The notes: a model not told the origin generated them from the letters alone. A DNA stretch of 46,501 nt from Planctomycetia bacterium (GCA_009924545.1 RFRL01000003.1:1-46501), one strand, 5' to 3'; shown: positions 7,006 through 25,039, counted from the first letter of the stretch. Program-made: numbers and translations.

Positions 7006-7430
7006 GGCGCGGAACTTCTCCCGAGCACCGCCCCGCGGGCGCTGTCCTGGCAATGTGGGTGGGCCGGGGGCCGGTGGGGGCCTGGGCGCAGACCTCCCTC
7101 GGCGGCCGAGGCAGAGCCTCCGGACTACTCATCGGCCGACCGTGCCGATCGCGTGGGAAAATCCGGTCGGGGGAGGTGTCCGACGTCAGGTCGGGGGAAG
7201 ACCTCCGTGACGACGCCGACCCGCGCACCGCCCGCTCTCCAAACGAGCTGTTGCTCGAGCGAAGCCGGCGACTGCGGCACGATTGCACCGCCGACGATGC
7301 CGCCCATCCGACGCTCGCCGAGGAGCCCGACTACCCGCTGATCACCGGCGGCAGGCCGCTCGCCGCGGTGCCCGGTCATCGCGTGACCATCGAGCTGTTC
7401 ACCGGATACCGGGGGTCAGTGGCACCCGCG

Positions 7431-8286: not shown

Positions 8287-9443
8287 CTATCCCGCACAAG
8301 CGCCGCAGGTGGACTCCGGCAGCCGCCAGGTCTCGGGGCGCCGGCCAAATTCGCACTCGATGGCAAAGCGTGCCATCCTCAGGAGCGCGTCGTGGTCGAG
8401 TTCGGGGCAGGGGATGTGCCCGGCGTGGGCGGCGGTGGCAGAGCGGTCGAATTCCGGGTCGCTCCGCAGGTAGCTGCGGTAGACGCCCAATTGCGAGCGC
8501 ATCGTGTCGGCGAACCAGCGTTCGTCGCGCACGTCGGGATCGTCCGGGGAGGCCGACGGCGAAAACCGCTCCACGGCCTCCTGGGTCACCCGGGCGATGA
8601 GTTCGGTCGGTACCGGCTGGGGGTGCGTGAGGTGATAGGTCCGGCCCTGGGCCGCGGGCGTCCGCAGGACATGGGCGATGACCGCCGACACCCAGTCGAC
8701 CGGTACGAAGTTCTTCCGGTCGCGGGCATCGATGCCGAGGATGCGGAGGAGGGACTTGCTGCTGGTGGAACCGATGACCATCCGCGGCAGCATGGTGTGC
8801 CCGAGGCGCACGACGGCGAACAGGCCGTGGTACGTGGAGGTGTAGCCCGTCCGCGAGTCCCCCACGATGATCGAGGGCCGCAGCACGGTCAGCGAGCGGA
8901 TGTGGGAAGCGCGGCGAACGACTGCCTCTGCCTCGACCTTGCTGCGCTCGTAGTCGTTGCCGTAGCGCTGGCCGACGTCGAGTTCGGTCTCCATGATGCG
9001 ACCCGTCCGCAGGCCGCACACATAGGCGGTGGAGACGTGGTGGAACGTGCCGATCCCGGCGGCGCGGGCCAACTCGAGCACATGGGCCGTACCCATGGCT
9101 CGCCGTCACGGTCGGCCCCGTGGAAGGTGAGCGAGGCGGCGTTGTGGACGATCGCGCTGCAGCGGTCGCCGATGGCCCGGACCGTTTCGGTATCGAGGCC
9201 ACAGCATGGAACCGTCAGGTCGCCGGCCACCACCGTGGGACGCGGCAGGCTCTCCCCCAGGGCCGCCTCCCAGCCGGCCACCATCGCCTCGATCCGGGCG
9301 GCGGGGTCGCGCTTCCGGTCGGGGCGGACGAGGACCATCGGTCGTTCGCCCGCCAGCAGAAGATCACGCACGAGATAGGAGCCGAGCAGCCCCGTCGCCC
9401 CCGTGAGCAGCAGTTGCCGCCCGCTCGACACCTCGGGGCTCAT
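8287..9443 (-). pseudogene. Frameshifted extended SDR (NAD_binding_4 / thioester reductase-like), paralog of 22345..23886
   Basis: The N-half (LLLTGATGLLG...IVHNAASL...DGEPW) is in the 8889..9683 frame. The C-half (GTAHVLEL...HHVSTAYVCG...YERSK...RPSIIVGD...NFVPVDWV) is in the 8287..9096 frame. The junction near 9090 lacks the xxNVx segment present in the paralog. Confidence 0.8.
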
Positions 9444-9585
9444 TTCCGCCGGACCGACGATCATGGGAGCGCGTGCGATCCTGCAGCCAAGCCACCACGG
9501 CCGTCCAGAGCGTCCGGCGGTCCGCGACGCAGGCAATGTAAGGTGATGATTCCCGGCCCGCAATGACCGCTTCGCGACGCTCCCC

Positions 9586-10956
9586 TCAAGGCGGGCTGTC
9601 CGGAGGTACGGTTGTAGCGATGGTGGCGGCGATGTCGGCGATGGCGTCGCGTAGCTGGGTGGCGAGGGACGCGGCGGCCCCACGGCCGAGGCTGTGCTCG
9701 TCGGCCATCACCGACAACCGCAGCTCGCCGGCGTAGGTCATCACCCCCACTGCCGCCCGGGTCCGGGGCCGCAGCGGGGGCACGCCAACCAGCGCCGTCA
9801 GGCGGACGTCGCGGGGGGCATCGCAGCCGTCCACCCTCGGCACGTCGGCCCGCATCCGTGCGCCGACGTTGCCGACGTTGCTCACGACGGCCGACGAGAG
9901 GCAGGCGGGCAACCGGGTCAGCAACCAGAGCAGGCCCGGCACACGCTGCAAGGCTTCCACGGCGTGGAGAAACTGTGCCGCCGCCCCGGTGTCCTGGATC
10001 CAACGACTGGCGGCGGCGAGCGACCGGACCAGTTCCACCGGTTCCCCGCAGTCGGCCACTGATCGATCGAGGAACGCATAGCCGACGTGATTGCCGGCGG
10101 GGAGACGGGCCCCGGCCGGCCGCAGGCTCACCGGCATGTTGATGCGGACATGCCGTGGGCGCTGACCGGCGGCGGCGTTCCACCCCAGTACCGTCCGCAT
10201 CGCGGCGGCCACCACGACATCGTTGACGGTGACGCCGCTTGCGGCGGCGGTGGTCCACAGCCGGCGCGTGGCGTGGCGATCGAACTCGACCGTGTCGTAC
10301 GGGGGCCGCAGCCCCGCCGCCGTAGCGGGGCGGAGCCGGTTCGGGAGCGGGGCCAGGACCGTGGGCCGGAGAAGCGCGAAGGTACTCGAATCGCGGGCCA
10401 ACCGCGTGCTACCGGCCACGGGGGGCGACGGCGCGATCGGCTGCGCCGCCGTCGAGCCTGCGGGATCCTCATCGCGTGCTCCGCGCGGACCCGGGTCGCG
10501 GAACCGGGCGGGGCGGCCTCCGTGGTAGAGCGTCCACATGTCGCCGAGCCATTCGATACCGGCCAGGCCATCGCACACCGCGTGATCGACAACGAGGACG
10601 ACACTCCAGCACGCCGGTCCCGGCCGCGGCCGTTCGCGTTCCAGGGCCACCACCCGGATCCCGCTTTCCGTGGTGAGCGAAAACGCCCGCCAGGGGTCGG
10701 CGGCGGATCGGTCGCGGTCGAGAGGCCACCATTCCACGACCGGGGAGCGGTCGGGGGGGAGCCAGACCCGGCGCCCGGACCGGCGGCCGAGGCGCATCCG
10801 GGTGCGCGGGTGGCGCTCCGCAGCCGCGGCCACGGCCGTCTCGAGGCGTCCCCGGTCGAGCGGCCCTTCGAGACGTACCTCGACGAAAAAAGCCATCGGG
10901 AACCCGGGCCGCCGGTCGGTGACGGCCAGTGTCTCGAAGGCGGACAGCGGGGCCAT
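9586..10956 (-). CDS. Stand-alone condensation-fold (CAT-like) acyltransferase, PapA5/WS-DGAT/NRPS-C-like
   Basis: HxxxDG motif (VVDHAVCDGLAG), LEGPLDRGRL..A..A...HP, GVTVNDVVVAA, MPVSLRP, AVVSNVG; start ATG 10956 chosen within the 9586..11577 ORF. Confidence 0.8.
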   Translation of the reverse strand: MAPLSAFETLAVTDRRPGFPMAFFVEVRLEGPLDRGRLETAVAAAAERHPRTRMRLGRRSGRRVWLPPDRSPVVEWWPLDRDRSAADPWRAFSLTTESGIRVVALERERPRPGPACWSVVLVVDHAVCDGLAGIEWLGDMWTLYHGGRPARFRDPGPRGARDEDPAGSTAAQPIAPSPPVAGSTRLARDSSTFALLRPTVLAPLPNRLRPATAAGLRPPYDTVEFDRHATRRLWTTAAASGVTVNDVVVAAAMRTVLGWNAAAGQRPRHVRINMPVSLRPAGARLPAGNHVGYAFLDRSVADCGEPVELVRSLAAASRWIQDTGAAAQFLHAVEALQRVPGLLWLLTRLPACLSSAVVSNVGNVGARMRADVPRVDGCDAPRDVRLTALVGVPPLRPRTRAAVGVMTYAGELRLSVMADEHSLGRGAAASLATQLRDAIADIAATIATTVPPDSPP

Positions 10957-11083
10957 CGGGTGCCTCGTGGGGTGCACGGACTTCCCCGCCAAAAGCCGGG
11001 TGCGAAGGGGGCGGTGGGATTGTCCGCAGCGGATGCAACGGTCGAAAGGGGGTGGGGGCCGCGCCCATGATTCCTGGCCTTTC

Positions 11084-11111
11084 TTGACACTCAACCCCGC
11101 CAATCCATACT
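11084..11111 (+). promoter_or_regulatory. Putative sigma70-type promoter for the PKS operon
   Basis: Perfect TTGACA (11084-11089), 16-nt spacer, CATACT (11106-11111) in a locally AT-richer stretch of the divergent intergenic region. Confidence 0.5.
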
Positions 11112-11178
11112 CAATCCTGCGTCGGTACCGGCATCCAGGGCCGGGCCCACCGGGGCTGCCCGGGGGGGTGGCCGCCGC

Positions 11179-11207
11179 GGGCGGCCCGGGGCCGCTCCAT
11201 TTTTTTT
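11179..11207 (+). terminator. Intrinsic-terminator-like hairpin inside the PKS 5' leader
   Basis: GCGGCC-CGG-GGCCGC stem-loop (11181-11195, extendable by G-U/G-C pairs) followed by T8 (11200-11207). Confidence 0.45.
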
Positions 11208-11410
11208 CGCGATCGAGGCCGGCGCGGTTCCCCGCGGTGGCCCTGAGCGGCAATGCCCCCGTCCGATTCGGTGGAGGGTGTGTTGTGCGGGCCCCAGGGA
11301 TGGGCGTGAGTCGCCTTGGAGGCACGACCCCCTTTTCCCATCGACAGCCCGTTTCCGCCGGCGGCCGCGCCGGCCAACGCACTTTCCCTCGCTCGTGGTC
11401 CGGTCCGCCG

Positions 11411-11428
11411 GTGCCACGATCGTGGCAC
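11411..11428. promoter_or_regulatory. Perfect 18-bp palindrome, candidate operator
   Basis: GTGCCACGATCGTGGCAC equals its own reverse complement and ends 28 nt upstream of the probable PKS start. Confidence 0.45.
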
Positions 11429-11456
11429 AGCCAACCGCCAAGGACGAGGATCAGCC

Positions 11457-14400
11457 TTGCAGGAACCACTCGCAATCGTCGGCATGTCCTGCAGACTGCC
11501 GGGTGCCGACGGTCTGGATGCGTTTTGGCGGCTCGTGGAGTCGGGGGGCACCGCCTGGGGGCCGCTTCCGGAATCACGTCTGCCCCGCGATCTTTACTTC
11601 GACCCGCACAAAGGCCGGCTCGGTCGCTCCTATTCGGAGATGGGGGCCGTCGTTTCCGACCGCGACCCCGACCCGCTCACCTGTCCGCTGACGGCGGAGA
11701 TGCGGCAGCGATACGACATCGCCCACCTCGTGTTCCTCGAGGTGGCCTCGCAGGCCTGCCGCGACGCCGGCCTCGATCCGTTCGCCATGCCCGGTGGGCG
11801 GCGCACCGGCGTGTACGTCGGCCACACCGGCGGCAGCACCCGGATCGGTGACCTCGTGTACGCGACGGGCATCGACGAGAACGCGGCCCTGCTGGAGGAC
11901 GTCGAGGTGGCCCGTCGGCTCCTCGGCGCGGAGGTCGCCGCGGTCGCCGCCGAAGTCGCCACATCGGTCCGTGATCGATATCCGGGCCGGCGTCCGGGAG
12001 AGCGACTCGATCTCAACGCCCTCGGCGCCGCCCGCATCGTCCAGGAAGCGCTGCGCCTCGACGGCCCGTATCTCGTGGTCGACGCGGCGTGCGCGTCGTC
12101 CCTCCAGGCCCTGGCGATCGCCGCCCGGGCGTTGGCGGAAGGTGGCATCGATCAGGCGATCGTCGGGGGGGCGTCGTACTGCAAGTCCGACAGCCTCGTG
12201 CTGTTCTCGGCGGCACAGTCGGTGAGCAACACCGGCTCGTGTCCGTTCGGCCGTGACGCCGACGGGCTCGTGACTGCCGAGGGCTACGTGGCCCTCGTCG
12301 TCAAGACGCTCTCGCGGGCCCGCGCCGACGGCGACCGGATCCGCGCCGTGATCCGCGCGATCGGCGTGGCCAGCGACGGGAAAGGGAAGAGCCTGTGGGC
12401 CCCGCGGCGCGAAGGGCAGATGCTCGCCGTGGAGCGGGCCTACCCCGATCCCGCCGACATCGCCCGCATCGACTACATCGAGGCCCATGCGACCAGCACG
12501 CAGGTGGGCGATGCCACCGAACTGGGGGCACTGGCCGGACTCCTCGGCCGGCACCTTCCCGCCGGCCGACGCATCCCCATCGGCAGTGTGAAGGCCAACA
12601 TCGGCCACACGCTGGAGACGGCGGGGTTGGCGAGCCTCGTCAAGGTCGTCCTGGCGATGGAGCACGGCGTCATCCCACCGGGTTCCACCTGCGACGAGCT
12701 CAACGAGGAGTTTCCCTGGGACAACGGGCCTTTCATCGTGCCGCGCACGGCGCTGCCGTGGCCGCACCGGGCCGACGGCGGTCCGCGGTTTGCCGCGGTC
12801 AACGCCTTCGGCATCGGCGGGCTCAACGTCCACCTGTCGCTGGCGCAATCGGCCGATCCCCCCGTCGTACCGGCGCGACGCCCCACGGCGCCCGACGACT
12901 CCGCCATCGCCATCGTCGGTGTCGGCTGCGTGCTCCCCGGGAGCCTGTCGGCGGCGGCGTTCGGCGATGTGCTCGACCGCGGCACACCGGTGTTCGTCGA
13001 GGTGCCGGCGGAGCGCTGGAGCCTGCGCCGGGCCCTCGACCGCTCCGCGGCGCGCACGTGGCGGACGGTGGCGGGGCTGGGTGGCTTCGTTGTCGGGTTC
13101 CACTACGACTGGCGTCGGCACAAGGTACCCCCCAAGCAGATCGCCGCGGCCAATCCGCTGCAATTCATGCTCCTCGAGGCTGCCGACGCCGCGATCGCCG
13201 ACCTCGGTGGGCCGGCACGGCTCGACCGGACCCGAACCGGCGTCGTGGTCGGGACGATGTTCGGGGGTGAGTTTTCCAACGACCTGCAGATGGGGCTGCG
13301 CTTGCCCGAGACCGCGGTCCACCTGCGCACCGCCCTCCGCCGGCGGGGGCTCGAGCCCGGGCAGGTCGACACCGTCAGCGCCGCCTTCGACAAGAAGGTG
13401 CTCGAGGAGATGCCGGCGCTGGTCGATGAGACCGGCAGTTTCACCAGCAGCACGCTCGCCAGCCGACTCACCAAGTCGTTCGACCTGATGGGCGGGGCGC
13501 TGGCGCTCGACGCCGGCGACTGCTCGGCCCTGTCGGCGATCGCCGCCGCCGTCGACATGCTCCGGCAGGGGAATTGCGACGCGGTGCTCTGTGCCGCGGG
13601 ACAGCGGGCGATGGACCTGATGGCCTTCGAGGGGATGTCGCTGGAAGGGTCGCTCGCGTCCGCACCGCGGGCCCCGTTCGATGCCGCGCACTCCGGCCGC
13701 CTGCCGGCCGAGGGGGCGGTGGTGCTGGTGCTCAAGCCCCTCGTCGCGGCCCGCGCCGCCGGCGATCCGGTCCGGGGAGTCATCCGCGGGATCCGCATCG
13801 GGTCGGGGGACGCGGTGGCACCGGTTGCCCGGCGGGTCATCCACGAGGCGACCGAAGAGGCCGGCGTGCCGGTCTCGGCAGTCGGAGTGCTGGAACTGGC
13901 CGGCGCTGGTGCGGCAGCGATCGACAACGCGCTCGTCGCAGGGGTGGCGACGGAGTATGCAGCCGGTGCCGGGGCCAGGGCTGCCGGGTCACTCGATACC
14001 CTCATCGGCCACTGCGGAGCGGCCGCCGGCGCCGCCGGAATCCTCAAGGTGTCGCGGGCCCTGTCCAGCGGCATCCTGCCCGCCACTCCGGGCGTGGCGG
14101 AGGGCACGAGCGTCGCCCCGGGAATCATCGCGTCCCCACGCCCCTGGCCGATTCCGGCGGCGGACGAGGTCGGGTACCGTGCTGGTGCGGTGACCACCGC
14201 CCACGGGCCGCTCGTCGGCCACCTCGTGATGGACAACGGCCTCCCGGTGCCGCAGTCCGCCGTTCGGCCAGCCACGCCGGCGCCAGCGCCCGCCCAGCCT
14301 TTGGTGGCGGCGCCGGTGCTGACGGCCGGCGTCACGACGCGTGCTGAAACCGCGCCGGCCATCGGGCCGGCCGCCGGTGTCCGACCCCTCGTGGCCGCGA

Positions 14401-17400
14401 TCTTCCCGGGGCAGGGGTCGCAGTACGGCGACATGTTCCGCGGTCTGGTGGCCGAGTCGCCGGTGGCCGCCGAGGTGGCCGCCGGTCTCGACACGCTGGC
14501 GAGCAGCGTGGGTCAGCCGACGCTGGCGGAAACCGCCTGGCGCACCGACCATGCCCTGGGTCTGCGTGTGTGGGACACCCAATGGTCGATGTACCTCGGC
14601 GACCTGTTCGCCTGGCGGATGCTCGAACGCATGGGCTTCGCCCCCGACATCGTCGCCAGCCACAGTTTCGGCGAGTTCCCGGCGCTTGCCGCGACTGGGG
14701 CGTGGCGCCCGGAAGACGGCGCCCGCGCCACGCGTGCCCGGGCCGATGCGGTTGAGCAGGAGGGGCCGCGCGGTGGGGCGATGCTCTCGGTCATTGGTGA
14801 CGTGGCGCGCGTCCGCGAGTTGGTGGCGCCGCTCGCCGGCGCGGTGTGGATCTGTGCCGAGAACTCCCCCGAGCAGCTCGTCGTCGGCGGTACGGTCGCC
14901 GGTGTGGACATGGTGGAACGGGCGCTGGAGCCGCTGCGACTCCGCTCCAAGCGATTGGCGGTGCCGAGCCCGTTCCACACCCCGTTGCTCGCCGCCGCGG
15001 CCGATCGTCTTGCCGGCGTGCTCGCCGGCCTGCCGATGGCCGCGCCACGTCTGCCGATCATCAGCAGCACCACCGTGGAGGCGCTGGTCGATGCCGCGTC
15101 GATCCGCGCGAGCCTCGTCCGGCAGATGACCGAACGCGTACGCTGGGTCGACGTCGTCCGGCAGCTCCATGCCCGGGGCGTACGGACGTTCGTGGAGGTC
15201 GGTCCGTCGGGCGTGCTCACCGGCCTGGTGCGCCGGATCCTCGACGGACTGCCCGGCGTGACACTCGTCCAGTTCGACCAGCGCGGTCAAGCGGCGGCCG
15301 AGCAGTGGGCCCGGTTGCGGAGTCAGTTGGCGGCTGCCGGCGCGCTGCGGGGGGGTGCCGCGGCGCCAGTCGTGCCGGCCCGGGACGTCGGGGCGCCGCC
15401 GTCTCCTGTCCTGCATTTCGACGCGACCGGCCGGCGCCGGGCGCGGAACCGTGCCGGTGGCCAAGCGGCGCTTGTCACGGGAACGGGAGCCCGGCCGCAG
15501 CCGGTGGGGACCCCGGCGGCGGCCCAGCCCGCTGCCGGGCCCACGGAGCGGCCGCCGCACGGCGAGCCCGTCTCCGTGGTGCCGGCGGTGGGCCACGTCC
15601 AGCCGGGCAACGGAATGAATGGCCATCACGGTTACGGTCGGAACGGATCGCACGACGGTGGTGATGGCTCCACCGCCTCGCCCGCTCCTGCCACGCCCCT
15701 CCTTTCGTCGGGGTACGCGGCGGCCGTCGGCGCGGTGCCTCATGGCAACGGATCGGGTCATGGCCCGGGGACTGGCAAGGGTCACGGCGTGAATGGCAGC
15801 GGCCAGGTCGCCATCGACGCCACCCCGCTCGCCGCGGCGGCACGGCTGCGGACGGCTTTCGGCAGTGAACGACCGCTGATGCAGCCGGTGGGGGGGCTCG
15901 AGCAGATCGTCGCCGCACTGCTGACGGAGCACGCCGCCTGGTTGCCACTGCGGAGTGCCGGGCCCGCCGGGCGCGACGTGCTCGATGCGATCGAACACCT
16001 CTTCGAGGCGCTACCGCGGCAGCGTGATGCCGTCCTCGCCGCCGCCACGCTCGATGAACTTTGCCGCTTGCTGGCGGCCAGCGGCGGCAAAGCCGACTGG
16101 GTGCACAGCGTTGCGGCGGCCCCGCCGCCCGCGTCCGCCCCGGCCGAGACCACTGGTAGCGCGGCGGCGGAGCTGGAATCGTTCGTGGTCGGGTTCGTGG
16201 TCGAGCAGACGGGGTATCCGCGGGAGATCGTGGAACTGGATGCCGACCTGGAGGGTGACCTGGGGATCGACAGCATCCGCAAGGCACAGCTCTTCGGCGA
16301 GATCGGCCAGCGCTACGGCATGAGTGCCGACGCGAGCGTGTCGCTCGACGACTTCCGGACGCTGCGCCACCTGCTCGATTACATGCTGCCGCGCGTCGGT
16401 GGTGGGGCGGCGCCCGGTGCGGCGGCTGTGCCGCCCGTGGCGGAGCCGGCACCGAGTCCGGCGTTTCTCCGCGGTCGCGCCGCAGGGCAGCGGCACGAGA
16501 CCGCGATCCGGCGCTGGTGCCGCGATCTGGTGGCGGCCGGTCATGCCGGCGGTCGGGTTTCCGCGATCGACGCCGAGCACGCCGCCTTCCTGGCGGGTGT
16601 CGCCGACGCGGTCGGGATCGACCGCAGCGTGCTCGAGGCCGGCATGGCGGCCCCGGCGCGGGCCCTGGGCGGCCTCGACATCGTCGTCGACCTCTCCGGT
16701 GATGATTTTCCCGGCATCCTTCTCGGCTTCGGCCGGCACGCGGAACCGGTCGTGCGCGAAGCGGCCGGCGGGGCGACCCTCCTCGCCGTGGCCGGTCTCC
16801 CCGATGCGGTGGCCGCGTGGAATGCAGCGGGGATCGTGGCACTGCTCACGTCGACTGCGGGGGCCGTTGCCGCCGCAGCCCTGCCGCGCCTGGTGGAGAG
16901 CTGCAGGTCCCTGGCCGATGTCGATGCCGCTGGACCGTGGCCCGAGGGTGTCGTCGTGATCAGCCTCACAGACACCGTTCTCCTGGCGACCGATGGCTCG
17001 GGACGACTCCAGCCGGCGCCGCGCTGCCGGCGCGAGGCGACCCCTGGGTCGGCCGTCACGCGGATCCTCCTGGCGGCGGCTCCTGACCGGCCCCTGTCGG
17101 CATTGTTCACCGACGCGGCGGGCGGTCTCCCCGCCGCCCTCTCTGCTGCCGCCACGTGGCTGGCCGTCGGCGGTGGGGCCGGTGGCCCACGGTCACTCGC
17201 CGGAGGTCCCCTCGGCGCGGGGGATCTCGTCACCGCGGCGGCGTCTCTGGCCCGGGTCCTCGCCGATCATCCACTGCCGCACGGGCCGGTTCCGCAGGAC
17301 GTCGCACGGCAAGCGGCACCGCGGCCGGTGACCGCCGGTGACGCCGGCATCACCCGGCGCTTCGGTCTGACCGTTCGTGACGTGGCCCCGACCGGGGGCT

Positions 17401-19751
17401 TGGACCTCGCCGGTGAGCGGGTGCTGGTCCTTGGTATCCTCGGGATCAGCGCCGGTGCCAACGCCTGCGGCGACCGGATCCGTGCCGCCGGTGGCATCCC
17501 CATGGTGGCCGGTGCCGGCAGCGTGGCGGAGGCCGTGGCGGCGGTGCAGCAGGCGGAGTCGGCGGGGGCGGTGCGACACCTCGTGCTCGTCACGCCCACG
17601 ACCGCTGAACCGGGCTGGTCGACCGATGGCGCGGCATCCGTGGCGGCGCTCTACGCGGCCTGCCAGCGCTGGATCACCGCGCGGATCGCGGCCGGCGACG
17701 GCGCCCGATCGACCCTCACCGCGACGACCACCCTCGGTGGCGACTTCGGTCTGTCGGGAGACATCGGCTGGGTCGGTGGCGGTGCCATCACCGGACTGTT
17801 CAAGAACTTGGCCCACGAGTTCGCCGAGCTCCGCGTGCGCGTGGTCGACGTTCCCCCGGCGGCAGCACCGGCCGAGCGTGCCGAGTGCGTCGTGGCGGAG
17901 ATCGGTGCGCCCGGGCCGGTGGAGATCGGCTGGCGGCAGGGGCGGCGTCTCGAACCGGTCCCGGTCGCGGGCGGTCCCGTGGCTGGCGCCCGGCTCGCCA
18001 GCCTGCGGCCGGGGAGCGTGTGGCTCGTCACCGGTGGGGCACGCGGCGTCACCGCGGCCTGCGCGCTGGAGCTCGGCCGGCGGCACGGTCTGCACCTGGT
18101 ACTGGTCGGATCGACGCGTCCGGAGCCGGTGGATCCGGCCTGGTTGCAGGCCGACGAGGCGACGGTCCGCGATCTCAAGGGACGGATCATGATCGCCGCC
18201 AAGGGACGCGGCGCCGATCCGCGGCAGGCGTGGCGGGCCGTGGAGAAGTCGATCGAGATCGGGCGGTCGCTGCAGGCGTTTCATGCAGCCGGTGTCCGGG
18301 CCCGCTATGAGCCGTGCGATCTGGGCGATGCGGCGGCGGTGCAGCGCCTCGTCGATGCCGTCATCGCGTCGTCCGGTCCGATTCGCGGCATCGTCCACGG
18401 GGCGGGCTGGGAGTCGGCCTGCCGGTTCGAGAAGAAGACCCTCGAGGGCTTGGCGGCGACGATCGGACCGAAGTGCCTCGGGCTCGAGCACCTCCTTCAC
18501 GCCACCGCCGGGCAACCAGTGGAGGCCCTCGTAGCCTTCGGTTCGACCAGCGGCCGCCTCGGTGGCCACGGCCAGGCCGACTACTCCTTGGCCAACGATC
18601 TCCTCGCCAAACTCGTCGCCCGCGCGCGCCACGGTCGGCGCGGCCTCCGCGCCACCACGTTCCACTGGCATGCCTGGGACGAGGTGGGGATGGCCAGCCG
18701 GCCCGAGAGCCGCTTCGTGCTCGAGCAGTTCGGCCTGAAGTTCATGCCACTGTCCGAAGGGGTGGGGCGGTTCATGGCGGAGATCGAGGCGGGTCTCCCC
18801 GACGCCGAGGTGCTGGTCACCGAGGCGAAGTTCATCGACGGCGCTGCCCCCGGGGCTGATGCCGCCCCTGCCGAGCGCTCCCCCGCTGTCGGAAGCCTGG
18901 TCGCGGATGTCCGTCGCGACGACGTCGACACGGAAGTGATGTTTCGCCTCGATCCCACCACCGATCGGTTCCTCATCGACCACCGTCAGCACGGCCGGCC
19001 CTTGCTGCCTGCGGTGATGGGCCTGGAACTGCTGGCGCAGGCCGTGTCTGCCGTGGGCGGCGCCGATCCAGTGCGAGAGTTCCGGGATTTCATCGTCGCC
19101 AGGCCGATCGCCTTCCCGGGTGACGTGCCCCGTGAGGTGCGCGTCCGGGTCGGCGCTCGACCCGTGGCAACATGGCGGGCGGAGGCCTGGGCCGACGCCA
19201 TCGACACGACCGGATCCGCGTTCGGACAGGGCCGCGTCCATTTCGCCGGGACGCTGTCCACCGGTATTCCCGAGCCGATCGCCGTGAAACTCGACCCGCC
19301 GTCGCTGCCGTTCTTCCCCATGGCCTACCAGGACGATGCGCCCCTCTGGCACGGCCCCTCGATGAGGACGCTCAAAGCCACTTTCCTGGACCGCAGCGGA
19401 GGCTGGGCCAAACTCGTCGTCCCGGCGGCGGACGTCGTGGCCGCCCCACGGGGCGCGGCGGGATGGACCGTGCCGGTCGCCGTCTTGGACGGCTGCATCA
19501 TGGCCTGCGGAACGTATTCCTTCGTGATGTGCGGGTGCCGCGTGGAGATCCCGGTCGGGATCGGCCGGGTGCGGCTGGAGTCAGCGGCCGCCCCCGGTGA
19601 GTCGTGCGTGCTCAGGCTGTTCTTCCGCAGCCAGACGGCCAGCGAGACCGTGTACGACTTCGTCCTGTATTCCGCCGATCACCGGCCCATCCTCGCGGTC
19701 GATGGCCTGCGCCTCGGGGTCATGGGTATCCCGCGGAGCGGTGGTGCATGA
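11457..19751 (+). CDS. Type I PKS / Pfa-Hgl-like lipid synthase, probably iterative: KS - KS*(CLF-like) - AT - ACP - degenerate C45-like - KR - DH
   Basis: KS1: EPLAIVGMSCRLPG, DAACASS, EAHATST, KANIGH. KS2: AIAIVGVGCVLPG but DAGDCSA and ELAGAG. AT: FPGQGSQ, SHSFG, SPFHT. ACP: EQTGYP...DLGIDSI. KR: VTGGARGV, VHGAG, GQADYSLAN. DH: FLIDHRQHGRPLLP, LDG. Probable start is TTG 11457 after a GAGGA RBS; the ORF is open from 11316. Confidence 0.92.
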   Translation: MQEPLAIVGMSCRLPGADGLDAFWRLVESGGTAWGPLPESRLPRDLYFDPHKGRLGRSYSEMGAVVSDRDPDPLTCPLTAEMRQRYDIAHLVFLEVASQACRDAGLDPFAMPGGRRTGVYVGHTGGSTRIGDLVYATGIDENAALLEDVEVARRLLGAEVAAVAAEVATSVRDRYPGRRPGERLDLNALGAARIVQEALRLDGPYLVVDAACASSLQALAIAARALAEGGIDQAIVGGASYCKSDSLVLFSAAQSVSNTGSCPFGRDADGLVTAEGYVALVVKTLSRARADGDRIRAVIRAIGVASDGKGKSLWAPRREGQMLAVERAYPDPADIARIDYIEAHATSTQVGDATELGALAGLLGRHLPAGRRIPIGSVKANIGHTLETAGLASLVKVVLAMEHGVIPPGSTCDELNEEFPWDNGPFIVPRTALPWPHRADGGPRFAAVNAFGIGGLNVHLSLAQSADPPVVPARRPTAPDDSAIAIVGVGCVLPGSLSAAAFGDVLDRGTPVFVEVPAERWSLRRALDRSAARTWRTVAGLGGFVVGFHYDWRRHKVPPKQIAAANPLQFMLLEAADAAIADLGGPARLDRTRTGVVVGTMFGGEFSNDLQMGLRLPETAVHLRTALRRRGLEPGQVDTVSAAFDKKVLEEMPALVDETGSFTSSTLASRLTKSFDLMGGALALDAGDCSALSAIAAAVDMLRQGNCDAVLCAAGQRAMDLMAFEGMSLEGSLASAPRAPFDAAHSGRLPAEGAVVLVLKPLVAARAAGDPVRGVIRGIRIGSGDAVAPVARRVIHEATEEAGVPVSAVGVLELAGAGAAAIDNALVAGVATEYAAGAGARAAGSLDTLIGHCGAAAGAAGILKVSRALSSGILPATPGVAEGTSVAPGIIASPRPWPIPAADEVGYRAGAVTTAHGPLVGHLVMDNGLPVPQSAVRPATPAPAPAQPLVAAPVLTAGVTTRAETAPAIGPAAGVRPLVAAIFPGQGSQYGDMFRGLVAESPVAAEVAAGLDTLASSVGQPTLAETAWRTDHALGLRVWDTQWSMYLGDLFAWRMLERMGFAPDIVASHSFGEFPALAATGAWRPEDGARATRARADAVEQEGPRGGAMLSVIGDVARVRELVAPLAGAVWICAENSPEQLVVGGTVAGVDMVERALEPLRLRSKRLAVPSPFHTPLLAAAADRLAGVLAGLPMAAPRLPIISSTTVEALVDAASIRASLVRQMTERVRWVDVVRQLHARGVRTFVEVGPSGVLTGLVRRILDGLPGVTLVQFDQRGQAAAEQWARLRSQLAAAGALRGGAAAPVVPARDVGAPPSPVLHFDATGRRRARNRAGGQAALVTGTGARPQPVGTPAAAQPAAGPTERPPHGEPVSVVPAVGHVQPGNGMNGHHGYGRNGSHDGGDGSTASPAPATPLLSSGYAAAVGAVPHGNGSGHGPGTGKGHGVNGSGQVAIDATPLAAAARLRTAFGSERPLMQPVGGLEQIVAALLTEHAAWLPLRSAGPAGRDVLDAIEHLFEALPRQRDAVLAAATLDELCRLLAASGGKADWVHSVAAAPPPASAPAETTGSAAAELESFVVGFVVEQTGYPREIVELDADLEGDLGIDSIRKAQLFGEIGQRYGMSADASVSLDDFRTLRHLLDYMLPRVGGGAAPGAAAVPPVAEPAPSPAFLRGRAAGQRHETAIRRWCRDLVAAGHAGGRVSAIDAEHAAFLAGVADAVGIDRSVLEAGMAAPARALGGLDIVVDLSGDDFPGILLGFGRHAEPVVREAAGGATLLAVAGLPDAVAAWNAAGIVALLTSTAGAVAAAALPRLVESCRSLADVDAAGPWPEGVVVISLTDTVLLATDGSGRLQPAPRCRREATPGSAVTRILLAAAPDRPLSALFTDAAGGLPAALSAAATWLAVGGGAGGPRSLAGGPLGAGDLVTAAASLARVLADHPLPHGPVPQDVARQAAPRPVTAGDAGITRRFGLTVRDVAPTGGLDLAGERVLVLGILGISAGANACGDRIRAAGGIPMVAGAGSVAEAVAAVQQAESAGAVRHLVLVTPTTAEPGWSTDGAASVAALYAACQRWITARIAAGDGARSTLTATTTLGGDFGLSGDIGWVGGGAITGLFKNLAHEFAELRVRVVDVPPAAAPAERAECVVAEIGAPGPVEIGWRQGRRLEPVPVAGGPVAGARLASLRPGSVWLVTGGARGVTAACALELGRRHGLHLVLVGSTRPEPVDPAWLQADEATVRDLKGRIMIAAKGRGADPRQAWRAVEKSIEIGRSLQAFHAAGVRARYEPCDLGDAAAVQRLVDAVIASSGPIRGIVHGAGWESACRFEKKTLEGLAATIGPKCLGLEHLLHATAGQPVEALVAFGSTSGRLGGHGQADYSLANDLLAKLVARARHGRRGLRATTFHWHAWDEVGMASRPESRFVLEQFGLKFMPLSEGVGRFMAEIEAGLPDAEVLVTEAKFIDGAAPGADAAPAERSPAVGSLVADVRRDDVDTEVMFRLDPTTDRFLIDHRQHGRPLLPAVMGLELLAQAVSAVGGADPVREFRDFIVARPIAFPGDVPREVRVRVGARPVATWRAEAWADAIDTTGSAFGQGRVHFAGTLSTGIPEPIAVKLDPPSLPFFPMAYQDDAPLWHGPSMRTLKATFLDRSGGWAKLVVPAADVVAAPRGAAGWTVPVAVLDGCIMACGTYSFVMCGCRVEIPVGIGRVRLESAAAPGESCVLRLFFRSQTASETVYDFVLYSADHRPILAVDGLRLGVMGIPRSGGA

Positions 19752-20407
19752 TCCCGTCGATGGTGATCCCGGTTGGTGGCCGAGTCAGTCGGGTGTCCAT
19801 CGATGGATGGATCGCCGACGTGGCGTGTGCCCATCCGGACGCGGGTGTCACCGTTGCGGGAGCCGCGCGGCGGTTGGCGGAGACGCTTGTCGCCGGGTCG
19901 GTCGGCGTCGCGCCCGACGATGTCCGCGTGGCAGCGTTATTGCCGTCGGGCCGGCCCGTCGCGATGTCAGCTGCCGGTCCGATGCCCGTCTCGGTGTCGG
20001 TGTCCCATGAGCGCACGATCGCGGGTGCGGCGGTGTCGTCCGCCGCGCGTGTGGGGATCGACATCGTCGATCCCCTGACCGCGCGTTCTGCGCTCGATGC
20101 CTGGTTCCGGAACGACGAGCGGTCGTCCATGCCGCTGGCCGAGTCTCCCGGCGATGACGTCACCACCGGGTGGCGAGCGTGCCTGTGGAGCGCCAAAGAG
20201 GCCGCCTACAAAGCCGCCTCGCTCGACGTGCCCTTCGCGCCCTTGGCGGTGGTGATCGTGCCAGGGACTGGCGATCGATTCCATTTCACCGTGCAGGGCA
20301 GCCTTCGCGATGTCAGCGGTTCCGGGCGTTGCTTCACCGCGGGACGGCACGTGGTGACGCTGGCGGTCGTGGGGAGTGTGGCGACGGAGGATGGGACATG
20401 TTCGTGA
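19748..20407 (+). CDS. 4'-phosphopantetheinyl transferase (Sfp-type)
   Basis: GRP, VSVSHE, VGIDIV and WSAKEAAYKA motifs; ATGA overlap with the PKS stop codon. Confidence 0.85.
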   Translation: MIPSMVIPVGGRVSRVSIDGWIADVACAHPDAGVTVAGAARRLAETLVAGSVGVAPDDVRVAALLPSGRPVAMSAAGPMPVSVSVSHERTIAGAAVSSAARVGIDIVDPLTARSALDAWFRNDERSSMPLAESPGDDVTTGWRACLWSAKEAAYKAASLDVPFAPLAVVIVPGTGDRFHFTVQGSLRDVSGSGRCFTAGRHVVTLAVVGSVATEDGTCS

Positions 20408-21549
20408 GTGACACCCATCTCCCCCAACTCCTCCCCGTCGCGGCGTACCGCGATGCAGCATGGCATGCGCGGGAGTTGGATGGATTCCTCCGGTCGGCGT
20501 GGCATCTCGTGGCGACGACCGCGGAGTTCCCGCAGGTCGGGAGCTTCAAGACGTGCGACTTGCTGGGCGTGCCGATCGTCCTGCGCCGTCATGCCGACGG
20601 CATCGCGGCGTTCGTCAATGTCTGCGCCCACCGCTTCGCGAGGCTCGCGGTGGATTCCTGCGGTCGCTGTGAGACGCTCCGCTGCGGGTATCACGGCTGG
20701 GAATACGACGAGGTCACCGGGGCGACGCGGCGCATTCCCGACGCGCCGTCGTTTCGACCACTCGAAAAGGGGCAACTCGGCCTCGTGACCGTCGGAGTCG
20801 AGGTGTGTGGCGGACTGGTGTTCGCGTCGCTCGATGGATCGCCGGGGCAGGTCTCCGATCGCTTGGCCGCGTGTGCCGGAGACGTTCCGCGCATCCTGGA
20901 GCAATCCCACTCTTTGGGGACTCGCGAATACCATGTCGATGTGAATTGGAAAGCCGCCGTCGAGAACACGCTCGAGAGTTACCACATCGCCGAGGTTCAT
21001 CCGCGGACCTTCGGCACGTGGCCCGACGAGCGGGAGTGCGCCCATGCCCTCCGGACAGATGGTTCGGTGTTCTCCGGACCCGGTGACAAACGATCCTGGG
21101 TCCGCTCGCTGGAGGGGCATCTGCTGCACCGCTGCGGCAAGGAACGCTCGGGGGCCTACCACCACGTCCATTGGCACCCCACCTTCACGATGGCGTACAC
21201 GGACACGTTCGTCGTGGCACTGAGTTTTCTCCCGGAGTCGGCGGTCCGGACGCGGGTGTTCGTTTGTTGGCTGGCGGCCACCGGACCGCGGAACGACGTG
21301 ATCGCCCACGCCGGCCTCCGGATGTGGGCCGCCCGGCAAGCCGGGTTCTGGCTTCGCGTCATCGCTGAAGACGTGGCGCTGTTGCCGAGGATCCAGAGTG
21401 GTCTCAATTCACCCGTGATGCCCGGCGTCGGCCTCATTTCGCGACGCGAGGAGCGGATCACGCATTTCCAGCGCTGGCTGCTTGACCGCGTCGGGCCGGC
21501 GGTGGGGGCCGGCGCGGTCGCCATCCAATCCCAGGAGTGCCTCTCATGA
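20398..21549 (+). CDS. Rieske non-heme iron oxygenase alpha subunit (copy 1)
   Basis: Rieske ligands CAH...CGYHGWEY; mononuclear Fe motif ENTLESYHIAEVH...ED; GGAGG RBS; overlaps the PPTase stop codon. Confidence 0.9.
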   Translation: MFVSDTHLPQLLPVAAYRDAAWHARELDGFLRSAWHLVATTAEFPQVGSFKTCDLLGVPIVLRRHADGIAAFVNVCAHRFARLAVDSCGRCETLRCGYHGWEYDEVTGATRRIPDAPSFRPLEKGQLGLVTVGVEVCGGLVFASLDGSPGQVSDRLAACAGDVPRILEQSHSLGTREYHVDVNWKAAVENTLESYHIAEVHPRTFGTWPDERECAHALRTDGSVFSGPGDKRSWVRSLEGHLLHRCGKERSGAYHHVHWHPTFTMAYTDTFVVALSFLPESAVRTRVFVCWLAATGPRNDVIAHAGLRMWAARQAGFWLRVIAEDVALLPRIQSGLNSPVMPGVGLISRREERITHFQRWLLDRVGPAVGAGAVAIQSQECLS

Positions 21550-22310
21550 TCGACCTTTCCGGCAAGGTGGCGCTGGTCACCGGATCGAGCCGCGGGATCG
21601 GCCGGGCCTGTGCCCTGCGCCTCGCCGAGGCGGGTGCCGACATCGTGGTGAACTTCGTCACCAGTGGCCGCGAGGCCGACGCGGTGGCCGCCGAGATCGC
21701 CGCGCTCGGGCGGCGCGTGGCCTGCGTCCGCGCCGACGTCAGCCACGAGGAGGACGTTGACGACATGATCGGCTTCGTCCGCGAGTCGTTCGGTCGCCTC
21801 GACGTGCTCGTGCACAACGCCGCCACCGGTGGCTTCCGGCCCCTCGCCGCCACGTCGCAGCGCCATTTCGATGCCGCCATGCACACCAACGTCCTGTCGC
21901 TGGTCCACCTCCTCAAGGCGGCGGGGCCGTTGCTCGAGGTGGGGCCTGGGCGTGGCAAGGTCGTGGTCCTCTCCAGCCACGGAACCCACATGGCCCTGCC
22001 GATGTACGGCCTCATCGGGGGCACGAAGGCGGCCCTTACTTCCCTGGCGCGGCACTGGGCCCTCGAGCTCGGCGACCGGGGCGTGAACGTCAACATCGTG
22101 GAGGCTGGGCTCGTGGAGACCGATTCCACGCGGCGCCTGCCCGGGGCGGCGGAGATGTTCGCCGGGCGGACCACGAAGACGATGGTCGGTCCGCGGCAGC
22201 TCGAGGCCACCGACGTCGCCGATGCCGTGCTGTTCCTCGCCAGCCCCCTGTCGGACCTCGTGCAGGGGCAGACCCTGGTGGTCGACGGCGGCGCCGCGAT
22301 CCACATCTGA
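21546..22310 (+). CDS. FabL-like SDR enoyl-ACP reductase
   Basis: TGSSRGIG, HNAATGGFRP, and Y-x6-K catalytic spacing (YGLIGGTK) as in FabI/FabL-type enoyl reductases rather than YxxxK; GQTLVVDGG; ATGA overlap with the upstream stop. Confidence 0.75.
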   Translation: MIDLSGKVALVTGSSRGIGRACALRLAEAGADIVVNFVTSGREADAVAAEIAALGRRVACVRADVSHEEDVDDMIGFVRESFGRLDVLVHNAATGGFRPLAATSQRHFDAAMHTNVLSLVHLLKAAGPLLEVGPGRGKVVVLSSHGTHMALPMYGLIGGTKAALTSLARHWALELGDRGVNVNIVEAGLVETDSTRRLPGAAEMFAGRTTKTMVGPRQLEATDVADAVLFLASPLSDLVQGQTLVVDGGAAIHI

Positions 22311-22344
22311 ACCGCCGCGGTCACTTCGCGCGAGGATCCTCCCC

Positions 22345-23886
22345 ATGTCCGCCCGCTCCCCCTACCTCCTCCTCACCGGTGCCACCGGGCTCCTCGGCCG
22401 GTCGCTCCTCCGCGATCTGGCCGCCACGGGCCGTCGGGTCGCGGTGCTGGTGCGCGGGTCCCGGACCGCCGGGGCGCCGGCGCGCGTCGACGAGCTGCTC
22501 GCCGACTGGGAGGAGGTCGCGGGCGCTGCGGTCGACTGCCCGGTGGTGCTGGCGGGCGACATCACCATGCCCGGCTTGGGACTCGATCCGGAGGCCACGG
22601 AATGGGTCGCGCGGCACGTCGACGAGGTGGTGCACTCGGCGGCGAGCCTGTCGTTCCAGCGCCGCGAGAGCGACGACGAGCCCTACGCGAGCAACGTGCG
22701 CGGGACGGCGCACCTCCTCGAAGTGTGCCGTGCCGCCGGCATCCGCCGGCTCCACCACGTGAGCAGCGCCTACGTGTGCGGGCTGCGCGAGGGGCGGATC
22801 CTCGAGACCGAGCTCGACGTCGGCCAGACCCCGGGCAACGACTACGAGCGGAGCAAGATCGACTCGGAGAAGGCGGCGGTCACCGCCCCGTTCCTCGACG
22901 TCGTCACCGTGCACCGTCCGAGCATCATCGTCGGCGACCTCGTCACCGGGTTCACCAACACGTTCCACGGGTTCTACAAGCCGCTGCGGATCGTGCAGCC
23001 GTTCGTGGAGGCGTTCGTCCAGGCGCGGCTCGCCCCCGGCAGCCTCCTCGACGTGCTCGGCATGTCGGGCCGCGAGGCGAAGAACCTCGTGCCGGTCGAC
23101 TGGGTGTCGGCGGTGATGACGCGGATCATCGGCGACCCCGGCGCCCACGGCCGCACCTACCACCTCGCTTCCAACCATCCCACCCCGTCGGGCCGCCTCT
23201 GCCGGCTGTTCGAGGAACTCGTGGTGGGGATGGCGACCGAGCGGGCGGCGGGCCGCGGCGCGACGGGCACGCGGACGAGCCCCTTCGACCCCGCCACGCT
23301 CGGTCGGCTGTTCGGCGACCAGATGCACGTCTACCGGGCCTACTGGCGCGACGACCCGCGCTTCGACACCAGCCACACCAGTGCCTTCGCCCCCGACCTC
23401 CCGGCGCCGCAACTCGACGACGAGACGATCCGCCGGCTCTGTCGGTTCGCGATCGGCAACAACTTCCGCTGGCCACCGCCGGGCCGGCCCACCCCGGGGG
23501 CGACCGCGCGCGACCTGCTCACGGCCCGGCTCGGCGTGCCGTCGTGGGCCGACAGCCCCGGTGGTCCGCAGGTCGGTCTCCTGGTGGCCGGTGCGGGAGG
23601 TGGGCAGTGGACGCTGGGCCCCGGGCGCGGCGCCGTGCCGGCGTGGCACGTCGGCCTGCCGCCAGCCGACGCGCCGGTGGTCCGCGTGTCGGCGGCCATG
23701 CTCGGGAGGGCGCTTGCCGCCGGCCTTCCCGTCACGGAGTTACTCGCGACGGCGCTCGTCGAAGCCCCTTCGGCAGCCGATCGGCGCCTGGCGGCCGAAG
23801 TGGTCGGCGCGGTCATGAACGCACCCGCACAGCCGGGCGATGGTCGCCGGCCGCCGGCCACGCGACCGGTCGCGGTCGTGGGGTGA
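22345..23886 (+). CDS. Extended SDR, NAD_binding_4 (thioester reductase / fatty acyl reductase-like) with a C-terminal extension
   Basis: LLTGATGLLG, GDIT.PGLGL, VHSAASL, NVRGT, HVSSAYVCG, YERSK, RPSIIVGD, NLVPVDWV; GAGGA RBS. The C-terminal GAGGGQWTL segment is reminiscent of SCP2-like lipid-binding domains. Confidence 0.85.
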   Translation: MSARSPYLLLTGATGLLGRSLLRDLAATGRRVAVLVRGSRTAGAPARVDELLADWEEVAGAAVDCPVVLAGDITMPGLGLDPEATEWVARHVDEVVHSAASLSFQRRESDDEPYASNVRGTAHLLEVCRAAGIRRLHHVSSAYVCGLREGRILETELDVGQTPGNDYERSKIDSEKAAVTAPFLDVVTVHRPSIIVGDLVTGFTNTFHGFYKPLRIVQPFVEAFVQARLAPGSLLDVLGMSGREAKNLVPVDWVSAVMTRIIGDPGAHGRTYHLASNHPTPSGRLCRLFEELVVGMATERAAGRGATGTRTSPFDPATLGRLFGDQMHVYRAYWRDDPRFDTSHTSAFAPDLPAPQLDDETIRRLCRFAIGNNFRWPPPGRPTPGATARDLLTARLGVPSWADSPGGPQVGLLVAGAGGGQWTLGPGRGAVPAWHVGLPPADAPVVRVSAAMLGRALAAGLPVTELLATALVEAPSAADRRLAAEVVGAVMNAPAQPGDGRRPPATRPVAVVG

Positions 23887-23917
23887 GCGGGCCCGGTCGG
23901 GCGCGAAGGCCGGCCGT

Positions 23918-25039
23918 TCAGCCCGGCTCGGCGGCGGCCGCAGTGGCGCGCTTGAGGTAGGAGTGGAATGCCCAGATCCGCTCCTCACGGGTGCCGATGC
24001 AGCCCCTGAACGGCGTGGCGGCGATGCCGCGTTGCTGCGCCTCGAAGACGCTGGCATCCTCGCGCTGGATGGCGGAGTTGGCTTTCACGCCATGCCGGGC
24101 GACGAGGTGGGCAACGATCCGGGCGAACGGTCCGCGCTTCGTGCCCTCGAGGCTGAACATCCACGCCCATGTCCGCGACGTGGTCGGACCGGTGGGGAGG
24201 TAGACCTGGGCGTAGGTGAACAGGTCGCTGAAGGTGAACACCAGGTTGGGAAAGATGTGATGGTGGACGTACTGGTCGTGGCACGGCGGCCCGCCGAGTT
24301 GGCGTGACACCTGGCGCTGCTTGCGCACCGGCTCGCTTGCCGGGTCGAGGGCGTAGACGAGCGTCGTCGAGCGATCCTCCAGCCAGTGGGCCTGCGCCTC
24401 CTCGGGGATGAGGCCGAAGCCGCCGAGCGTGCTCGGGTGGATGAAGGGGAGGTGGTACGTCTCGACCGTGTTCTCGACGGGGATCTTCCAGTTGCAGGCG
24501 AACTCGCGGTCGTAGGTCCAGTTGCAGTGGTAGGGGGGGGCGAAGGCGGCGGCGATCCTGGGGAGGAACTCGCCGAGGTGTTCCGCGAGGCCCGGTCCTT
24601 CGGGGGCGAGGCGCACGAACACGAGGTCGCCGCAGGTGTCGACGGCGAAGCACTGCAGCCGGGCGTTCTCCCGGTCGAACGGTTTGAAGCAACCGCCGTC
24701 GGGGACCTTCGCCACCTGGCCGGAGGCCGCATACTCCCAGCCGTGGTACTGGCACACGAGGCGCGGGTCGTGCCCCTGCGGCTGGTGGGTGAGCTGGCAG
24801 TGGCGGTGGGAGCAAACGTTGAGGTAGGCGTGAAGGCGCCCTTCGTGGCGGCGGACGAGGACCGGTCGGCCGCACAGGTCGAACGTGCGGTAGTCGCCGT
24901 CCGCCCGGAAATCGCTGCTCAGCGCGACGGGATGCCACGCGGCGAGGAACAGGCGATCCACTTCGGCGCGGGCGGTTTCCGCGGAGAGGTAATCGGCGGC
25001 GTCGAGCTGGTAGGCGAGCTGTTCCTTGTGGACGAACAT
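23918..25039 (-). CDS. Rieske non-heme iron oxygenase alpha subunit (copy 2)
   Basis: CSH...CQYHGWEY, NWKIPVENTVETYHLPFIH, REDA, REERIWAFH; collinear with copy 1. Confidence 0.9.
   Translation of the reverse strand: MFVHKEQLAYQLDAADYLSAETARAEVDRLFLAAWHPVALSSDFRADGDYRTFDLCGRPVLVRRHEGRLHAYLNVCSHRHCQLTHQPQGHDPRLVCQYHGWEYAASGQVAKVPDGGCFKPFDRENARLQCFAVDTCGDLVFVRLAPEGPGLAEHLGEFLPRIAAAFAPPYHCNWTYDREFACNWKIPVENTVETYHLPFIHPSTLGGFGLIPEEAQAHWLEDRSTTLVYALDPASEPVRKQRQVSRQLGGPPCHDQYVHHHIFPNLVFTFSDLFTYAQVYLPTGPTTSRTWAWMFSLEGTKRGPFARIVAHLVARHGVKANSAIQREDASVFEAQQRGIAATPFRGCIGTREERIWAFHSYLKRATAAAAEPG

Follow-up and report, generated by a model that had tools for sequence, protein, structure and literature searches.

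Heterocyst glycolipid (Hgl) synthases, which are related to the polyunsaturated fatty acid (PUFA) synthases PfaA-E, follow a logic of reductive release in which the chain leaves as a long-chain alcohol. Here we describe a Pfa/Hgl-related gene cluster located at positions 8287-25039 of a 46,501-nt stretch of DNA (Planctomycetia bacterium, GCA_009924545.1 RFRL01000003.1:1-46501; the whole stretch is hereafter the window), in which a polyketide synthase (PKS) gene is joined by genes for a phosphopantetheinyl transferase (PPTase), two Rieske oxygenases, a FabL-like short-chain dehydrogenase/reductase (SDR), two thioester-reductase-like enzymes and a condensation-fold acyltransferase. A total of 20 secondary-lipid types are described in the printed text of Shulse & Allen (PMC3098273). 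According to the same text (PMC3098273), Type R of Acidobacteria, Roseiflexus and Elusimicrobium consists of one PfaA-like gene with ketosynthase (KS), malonyl acyltransferase (MAT), chain-length factor (CLF), acyl carrier protein (ACP) and ketoreductase (KR) domains, followed by a PPTase gene. In the zeamine pathway, as outlined in the available text, a thioester reductase has been recruited by a synthase system of the PUFA kind (PMC13291983). For strain SH139, one hglE-KS cluster is listed, with no product given in the available text (PMC13190842).

The planctomycete synthase shares with PUFA synthases the KS, CLF, malonyl-type acyltransferase (AT), LGIDSI-type ACP, KR and PKS-type dehydratase (DH) domains, the adjacent PPTase gene and the KS-CLF didomain seen in Protein Data Bank (PDB) entry 6riw. 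In contrast to those systems, all of its domains lie on one polypeptide, a FabL-type SDR is found instead of a FabA-like DH/isomerase and a PfaD-family enoyl reductase (ER), and its gene is accompanied by Rieske, reductive-release and condensation-fold acyltransferase genes. With Hgl clusters (antiSMASH class 'hglE-KS') it has in common a Pfa-related synthase and the KS-CLF-AT arrangement given for HglC in the printed text (PMC3098273), whereas the scanned open reading frames (ORFs) of the window include no glycosyltransferase, one synthase gene replaces several, the reductases carry no fused ACP, and Rieske oxygenases and an acyltransferase are present. The nearest described type is Type R, to which we liken the cluster by domain content and downstream PPTase gene as printed, although the printed order is KS-MAT-CLF-ACP(3-6)-KR and the order here is KS-CLF-AT-ACP(1-3)-KR-DH (PMC3098273). 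The word 'Rieske' occurs 0 times in the text of that paper, supplements aside. Unlike the zeamine system, the cluster has neither an aminotransferase nor a nonribosomal peptide synthetase (NRPS)/PKS partner pathway, such features being limited to two distant loci (L063 and L071).

The tailoring genes resemble those of the phthiocerol dimycocerosate (PDIM; PapA5) and wax-ester (fatty acyl reductase plus wax ester synthase/diacylglycerol acyltransferase, WS/DGAT) pathways in two respects, namely a free-standing condensation-fold acyltransferase adjoining the PKS and a stand-alone NAD_binding_4 reductase paired with that acyltransferase. Phthiocerol bears a methoxy group, which is paralleled by FkbM O-methyltransferase genes in relatives of the cluster. 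On the other hand, the acyltransferase misses the PapA5 and WS/DGAT cut-offs widely and has Asp for the first His of HHxxxDG, and no modular Pps- or Mas-type PKS is present. In our searches of openly accessible main texts, we found no paper on a Rieske oxygenase belonging to a PUFA-synthase-like cluster in Planctomycetota, and the available text of a planctomycete metabolite review and of a centenary review held nothing relevant. The type, a Pfa/Hgl-related secondary-lipid synthase with reductive release, is already known. As far as we searched, a single-polypeptide KS-CLF-AT-ACP-KR-DH synthase has not been described in combination with Rieske oxygenases, a condensation-fold acyltransferase and a FabL-type ER. 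An initial annotation of the window had called the cluster a candidate undescribed pathway; within our searches this holds for the combination, and it overstates the novelty of the cluster class, which genome-mining tools already flag in planctomycetes.

Gene content and organization of the cluster

The window is contig C113 of a metagenome-assembled genome of 444 contigs and 4.36 Mb (92.9% complete). Near-identical DNA is present in freshwater and lake metagenomes from several studies, and the host is an uncultured freshwater planctomycete that carries a conserved, probable secondary-lipid cluster. The G+C content is about 72%, because of which most long ORFs are spurious; genes were therefore called from third-position G+C together with family matches. 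Domains were assigned by Pfam and NCBIfam scans of the submitted long window ORFs. All genes named in the initial annotation were located within the interval:

8287-9563, -, second stand-alone reductase (Red2); NAD_binding_4 matches in two frames
9586-10956, -, condensation-fold acyltransferase; PapA_C 31.9 bits (cut-off 30)
11457-19751 (alternative TTG start at 11316), +, synthase (PKS); Pfam and NCBIfam matches and motifs
19748-20407, +, PPTase; ACPS 26.6 bits (cut-off 25), motifs GIDIV and WSAKEAAYK
20398-21549, +, Rieske oxygenase 1; Rieske and Ring_hydroxyl_A (Pfam)
21546-22310, +, FabL-like SDR; FabL model 245 bits
22345-23886, +, NAD_binding_4 reductase of 513 aa; NAD_binding_4 129 bits, Thioester-redct 113 bits
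23918-25039, -, Rieske oxygenase 2; about 30% identical to Rieske 1

The genes from the synthase to the FabL-like SDR are translationally coupled. ATGA overlaps join PKS to PPTase (19748-19751) and Rieske 1 to the FabL-like gene (21546-21549), while PPTase and Rieske 1 overlap by 10 nt with GGAGGA immediately upstream. The 513-aa reductase follows the FabL-like gene after 34 nt and is convergent with Rieske 2, their stop codons lying 31 nt apart, and the acyltransferase and Red2 genes lie upstream of the PKS and are divergent from it. Since this arrangement recurs in many related genomes, it is not due to chance. The gene set and operon logic proposed in the initial annotation are thus borne out by Pfam and NCBIfam matches and by the ATGA junctions. 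The absence of thioesterase, PfaD, glycosyltransferase and adenylation families that it had reported likewise agrees with the Pfam scans of the submitted window ORFs, in which none of them was matched. Moreover, neither a pfaD-family (TIGR02814) match nor an above-cut-off match to the thioesterase family PF00975 was obtained in the whole 92.9%-complete genome.

Domains of the synthase

Depending on the start codon, the synthase is 2,764-2,811 aa long, with the domain order KS-CLF-AT-ACP-KR-DH:

11463-12875, +, KS; Cys-His-His kept (DAACAS, HATST, NIGH)
12900-14093, +, CLF-like second KS; Asp735 for the active-site Cys, Gly865 for the first His
14400-15305, +, malonyl-type AT; SHSFG, Acyl_transf_1 88.7 bits, FabD model 168 bits
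16185-16382, +, ACP (one PP-binding domain); LGIDSI
18018-18683, +, KR; GGARGVT and YSLAN
18945-19748, +, PKS-type DH; PKS_DH_N, HxxxGxxxxP read as HRQHGRPLLP

We classify the second KS-like domain as CLF-type because its Cys and first His are replaced. PDB 6riw (ORF10, which we take to be a PfaC KS-CLF didomain) is the second-best structure match and aligns to PKS residues 191-715 (read from 11457), that is, from the KS into the CLF. The best NCBIfam model for the synthase is PfaA (TIGR02813), whose 641.6 bits are under the cut-off of 1010.1; together with the literature searches, in which no description was found, this agrees with the earlier claim that no characterized cluster is closely matched. 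The sole dehydratase on the synthase matches PKS_DH_N and PS-DH, and the tandem FabA-like DH/isomerase typical of Pfa is lacking. The synthase has no ER domain of its own, and about 540 residues between ACP and KR gave no family match in Pfam.

Relatives of the synthase carry 2-3 tandem copies of the LGIDSI ACP, compared with one in the window. The single copy may be a collapsed tandem repeat, which is conceivable because the window already has another assembly error (at 9092/9093, see below). The tandem ACP region at about 15.3-16.4 kb is a possible further site of such an error.

Candidate tailoring and release enzymes

Among solved structures, the FabL-like SDR is closest to the NADPH enoyl-ACP reductase 3oic/3oid (175 bits), and a FabG follows at 128 bits. 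Instead of the classical YxxxK, it has Tyr-x6-Lys, and its MYGLIGGTK aligns with the Tyr...Lys of 3oic. This Tyr-x6-Lys spacing defines FabL enoyl-ACP reductases. The gene is single-copy in the genome. Of 41 related genomes, 17 gave a match at E<=1e-40, and every one of the 14 genomes that match Rieske 1 at E<=1e-50 was among them. When the phylum was sampled evenly, with six candidates scored in each genome, 4 of 401 genomes matched at E<=1e-70. A housekeeping enoyl reductase was ruled out, as the gene was undetected with this query in the other 24 of the 41 relatives and tracks the cluster. We regard the FabL-type SDR as the probable trans-acting ER of the synthase, judging from its sequence relationships. 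The FabL-like protein is also conserved far above every other protein of the cluster, with identities of 81-97% in the family (42-76% for the synthase) and 62-68% in distant variants.

The ligands of the Rieske cluster (CxH...CxxH) and of the iron site (His-His-Asp) are present in both Rieske proteins, and C76, H78, C96, H99, H196, H201 and D325 are invariant across 13 Rieske sequences. For Rieske 1, sequence matches to known oxygenases are confined to the N-terminal half. Its AlphaFold model has a predicted local distance difference test (pLDDT) score of 83, and the nearest structures in Foldseek are Stc2 and CntA (quaternary-ammonium mono-oxygenases) and terephthalate dioxygenase, at about 20% identity. 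This match of the predicted fold places Rieske 1 in the superfamily and gives no hint of its substrate.

Both stand-alone reductases contain TGATGLLG and YERSK and match the terminal reductase domains of PKS and NRPS enzymes, the 513-aa one matching the thioester reductase (TR) domains of PDB 8v1x and 4u7w. Pfam detected on them neither a PP-binding domain, as in a fused ACP, nor the 'Sterile' C-terminal domain of fatty acyl reductases. The 513-aa reductase ends in an extension of about 120 residues for which Pfam gave no match even at E<=5, and an SCP2-type lipid-carrier reading of it is therefore unsupported.

In the window, Red2 consists of two overlapping ORFs in different frames. The C-terminal half (8287-9096) matches NAD_binding_4 positions 115-258, and the N-terminal half, from about 9093 to a start between 9464 and 9683, matches positions 1-102. 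DNA alignment with the intact orthologues of two related genomes (G003, of the same genus, and G011) revealed a clean 16-nt gap at 9092/9093, by which five codons of a conserved motif before 'GT' are lost; the gene is split because of this deletion. We compared the site with independent contigs of four runs. A 3,423-nt contig of the probable source sample has a 16-nt insertion exactly behind 9092 and otherwise no differences; counting this one, contigs of three runs (X1, X2 and X5) from three studies have the insertion at this place. Among contigs spanning the junction, the deleted form was absent. As the 16 nt are present in all three studies, we consider it most likely that the organism has an intact Red2 and that the frameshift is either an artefact of the assembly or a rare variant; a pseudogene is rejected on the same grounds. 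The initial annotation was right that a second reductase is present, and did not notice that the assembly splits it.

For the acyltransferase, Pfam PapA_C is the only family model that passes, and barely (see the list above), with NCBIfam scores for WS_DGAT (49.7, cut-off 309.95) and PapA5 (22.9, cut-off 396) far below the cut-offs. Its HHxxxDG motif reads DHAVCDG, with H132, D136 and G137 invariant and the first His replaced by Asp in the proteins of both the window and G003. A sequence search against PDB gave nothing at E<=0.1, and only the fold search gave matches. The AlphaFold model (pLDDT 86) led in Foldseek to condensation-domain structures, with PapA5 (1q9j) at rank 7.

Conservation of the cluster and its variants

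A Rieske-alignment scan with one genome per species yielded 80 loci, nearly all labelled Planctomycetota; part of this set shares contigs with an earlier set of loci from related genomes. We separated a close set of 28 loci with a Rieske protein at least 42% identical from a distant set of 52 loci, and the fractions given for the close set consider only loci whose contig extends far enough. The whole gene order, including the flanks, is kept in G003 and G011 (a large protein, HIT, Red2, acyltransferase, synthase, PPTase, Rieske 1, FabL and reductase), and G003 additionally has Rieske 2. Across the close set, the synthase lies directly upstream of Rieske 1 in 22/24 loci and the PPTase between the two in 21/24. 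Both loci that miss the synthase (L033 and L036) do hold its N-terminal part, and in L036 one continuous ORF bears the KR motifs. Downstream, the FabL-like gene is found in 20/21 loci and the reductase in all 12 that could be assessed, the convergent Rieske 2 is present in 6/10, and the acyltransferase lies upstream in 8/8. The tailoring genes thus co-occur with the PKS in other genomes, as the initial annotation had anticipated for a true cluster.

Distant loci showed a looser pattern. The synthase is upstream of the Rieske gene in 18/40 and the FabL-like gene downstream in 16/42, with both present in 13/36, while the reductase was found in 1/41 and the acyltransferase in 5/52. A comparison of the close and distant counts therefore indicates that synthase, Rieske and FabL form the core, and that the genes for release and decoration vary. 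Throughout Planctomycetota, this looser PKS-Rieske-FabL core is met again in the company of differing accessory genes. The additions in variant clusters include methyltransferases of the LCM type and of class I. In two distant loci (L063 and L071), a class III aminotransferase and an AMP-binding enzyme adjoin the PKS-Rieske-FabL genes, and in L063 the aminotransferase and the AMP-ligase sit between the reductase and the condensation-like homologue of the acyltransferase. The domain set, the intact catalytic motifs, the translational coupling and the conservation of the gene set are direct observations.

An FkbM methyltransferase gene lies between Rieske 1 and FabL in G003 (locus L009, 18470-19357) and in L036 (11116-11961) and is absent in the window. 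A gap of 899-981 nt separates Rieske 1 from FabL in 10 of the 24 close loci. In one genome (G020), a Rieske-1-like gene stands alone on contig C2 (L016 and L073), and a FabL-like and a Rieske-2-like gene stand together on contig C37.

Flanking genes

Upstream of the cluster, positions 82-4065 (+) hold a 1,327-aa ORF that shows a strong coding signal and matches nothing in Pfam or NCBIfam; G003 and G011 keep it beside the HIT gene, at 67% and 48% identity, respectively. Two minus-strand genes lie between this ORF and the HIT gene, one for an OprB-type porin at 4087-5532 and another at 5542-7053, and neither is at this place in G003. The gene at 5542-7053 has no Pfam match of its own; a 36%-identical homologue in L036, directly after the reductase, matches Porin_O_P. 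This porin-like gene was not counted as a cluster member, as it is not kept next to the cluster in G003 or G011. The downstream flank (25376-31701, -) encodes a UvrD-type helicase-nuclease and a PD-(D/E)XK nuclease, presumably an AddA/AddB-like pair, and the same flank is found in G011, L039, L041 and L048. The two nuclease ORFs as listed overlap by 334 nt, and the true start of the downstream one is therefore probably later.

Proposed pathway and alternative explanations

We propose, with roughly even confidence, that the cluster makes a very long saturated acyl chain that is released reductively, oxidized by the Rieske enzymes and joined into an ester-type lipid. In this pathway, the PPTase would activate the ACP, and the KS-CLF-AT-ACP-KR-DH synthase would iteratively extend the chain with malonyl units. 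The co-translated FabL-type reductase would provide the missing enoyl reduction in trans, giving a long, largely saturated acyl-ACP. One or both thioester reductases would then free the chain reductively as an aldehyde or an alcohol. The Rieske mono-oxygenases would place oxygen functions on the alkyl chain, or desaturate it, and the condensation-fold acyltransferase would move an acyl group, probably carrier-bound, to a hydroxyl. The end product may be a wax-ester-like or diol-ester-like neutral or envelope lipid. Reductive release is favoured because both reductases are TR-like with intact motifs and no thioesterase was found. The presence in L063 of a reductase, an aminotransferase, an AMP-ligase and a condensation-like enzyme points to an aldehyde intermediate, the end of which would then be acylated. 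The methyltransferases of relatives fit a conversion of hydroxyls into methoxy groups. We infer the iterativity, the chain length, the order of the steps, the Rieske regiochemistry, the two- versus four-electron reduction and the ester linkage from the kinds of enzymes encoded.

Several observations weigh against this proposal. Many distant PKS-Rieske-FabL clusters are without both the reductase and the acyltransferase, and the Rieske step is therefore not tied to reductive release. The genomes compared are kin, so the synteny counts are not independent and overstate the support that they lend. The acyltransferase misses the WS/DGAT and PapA5 cut-offs, and its modelled fold also resembles N-acylating and dehydrating condensation domains, so that ester formation is only predicted. 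The 245 bits of the FabL-like SDR are below the equivalog cut-off of NCBIfam NF005975 (328), and its ER role is a putative one. Finally, the cluster contains no electron-transfer partner for the Rieske enzymes, two ORFs with Fer2 domains being located elsewhere in the genome.

One alternative is that the cluster makes very-long-chain (hydroxy) fatty acids kept as envelope-bound acids, comparable to the residue-bound C26-C32 (omega-1)-hydroxy fatty acids of other planctomycetes, with the condensation-fold enzyme off-loading the ACP-bound chain to an acceptor in the envelope and the reductases in a side role. PapA5-type enzymes accept carrier-bound acyl donors, as this off-loading would require, and many variant clusters have no reductase. 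We know of no genes assigned to the bound C26-C32 (omega-1)-hydroxy fatty acids of the phylum, and our literature searches likewise gave none. Acids of this kind are known from Telmatocola and Zavarzinella, according to the available text of PMC3327967. These lipid reports come, however, from other families of the phylum, and the reductase is present in 12/12 close loci, often with a second one beside the acyltransferase, for which reasons we consider this alternative unlikely. A more improbable possibility is that the FabL-like SDR partners the Rieske enzyme, oxidizing an alcohol after hydroxylation, and that a synthase with only KR and DH makes an unsaturated chain such as a polyene. An ATGA overlap indeed couples the Rieske gene to the SDR gene, the two form the most widely kept pair beside the PKS, the FabL equivalog cut-off is unmet, and sequential Rieske/SDR pairs are known (SdmA/SdmB, to which matches here are weak, and dioxygenase/diol-dehydrogenase pairs). 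On the other hand, the Y-x6-K spacing and a clear best match to solved FabL, and not to diol or alcohol dehydrogenases, speak for an enoyl reductase, as do a synthase without its own ER and a genome without PfaD.

The two distant loci with a class III aminotransferase and an AMP-binding enzyme, one of which (L063) includes a reductase and a condensation-like enzyme as well, raise the question of whether the product is an amino lipid or a zeamine-like N-acyl long-chain amine, made by transamination of the aldehyde followed by N-acylation. No aminotransferase or AMP-binding gene is present in the window or in the close-set loci examined, and for the cluster described here we think such a product very improbable. 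We give practically no credence to the idea that the Rieske genes are unrelated aromatic-degradation genes that lie beside the PKS by chance. The families that they match best are named for subunits of aromatic ring-hydroxylating dioxygenases, but the Rieske gene is translationally coupled in the operon, Pfam scans found no accompanying beta-subunit, ferredoxin or reductase genes in the window, and a chance placement is already contradicted by synteny, as shown by the PKS neighbour in both close and distant loci.

Going beyond the proposed ester-lipid pathway, we tentatively suggest that a Rieske oxygenase in line with a PUFA-synthase-like megasynthase, possibly acting on the carrier-bound chain, might oxygenate a very-long-chain alkyl product (O-methylated in relatives) on the way to a phthiocerol-ester-like envelope lipid. 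The PKS-Rieske-FabL core could, equally tentatively, also be a route to the bound C26-C32 hydroxy lipids of planctomycetes.

Implications for planctomycete lipids

The envelopes of planctomycetes are unusual, several of their long-chain lipids are unexplained, and to our knowledge almost no planctomycete PKS cluster has a known product. The cluster described here provides a defined and conserved set of genes that may serve an envelope or storage lipid in abundant uncultured freshwater planctomycetes, and a Rieske oxygenase inside a PUFA-synthase-like operon is an uncommon pairing. If the proposed pathway is true, an oxygen-dependent tailoring step would join the repertoire of secondary-lipid synthases, and lipid biomarkers might be traced to this group of planctomycetes.

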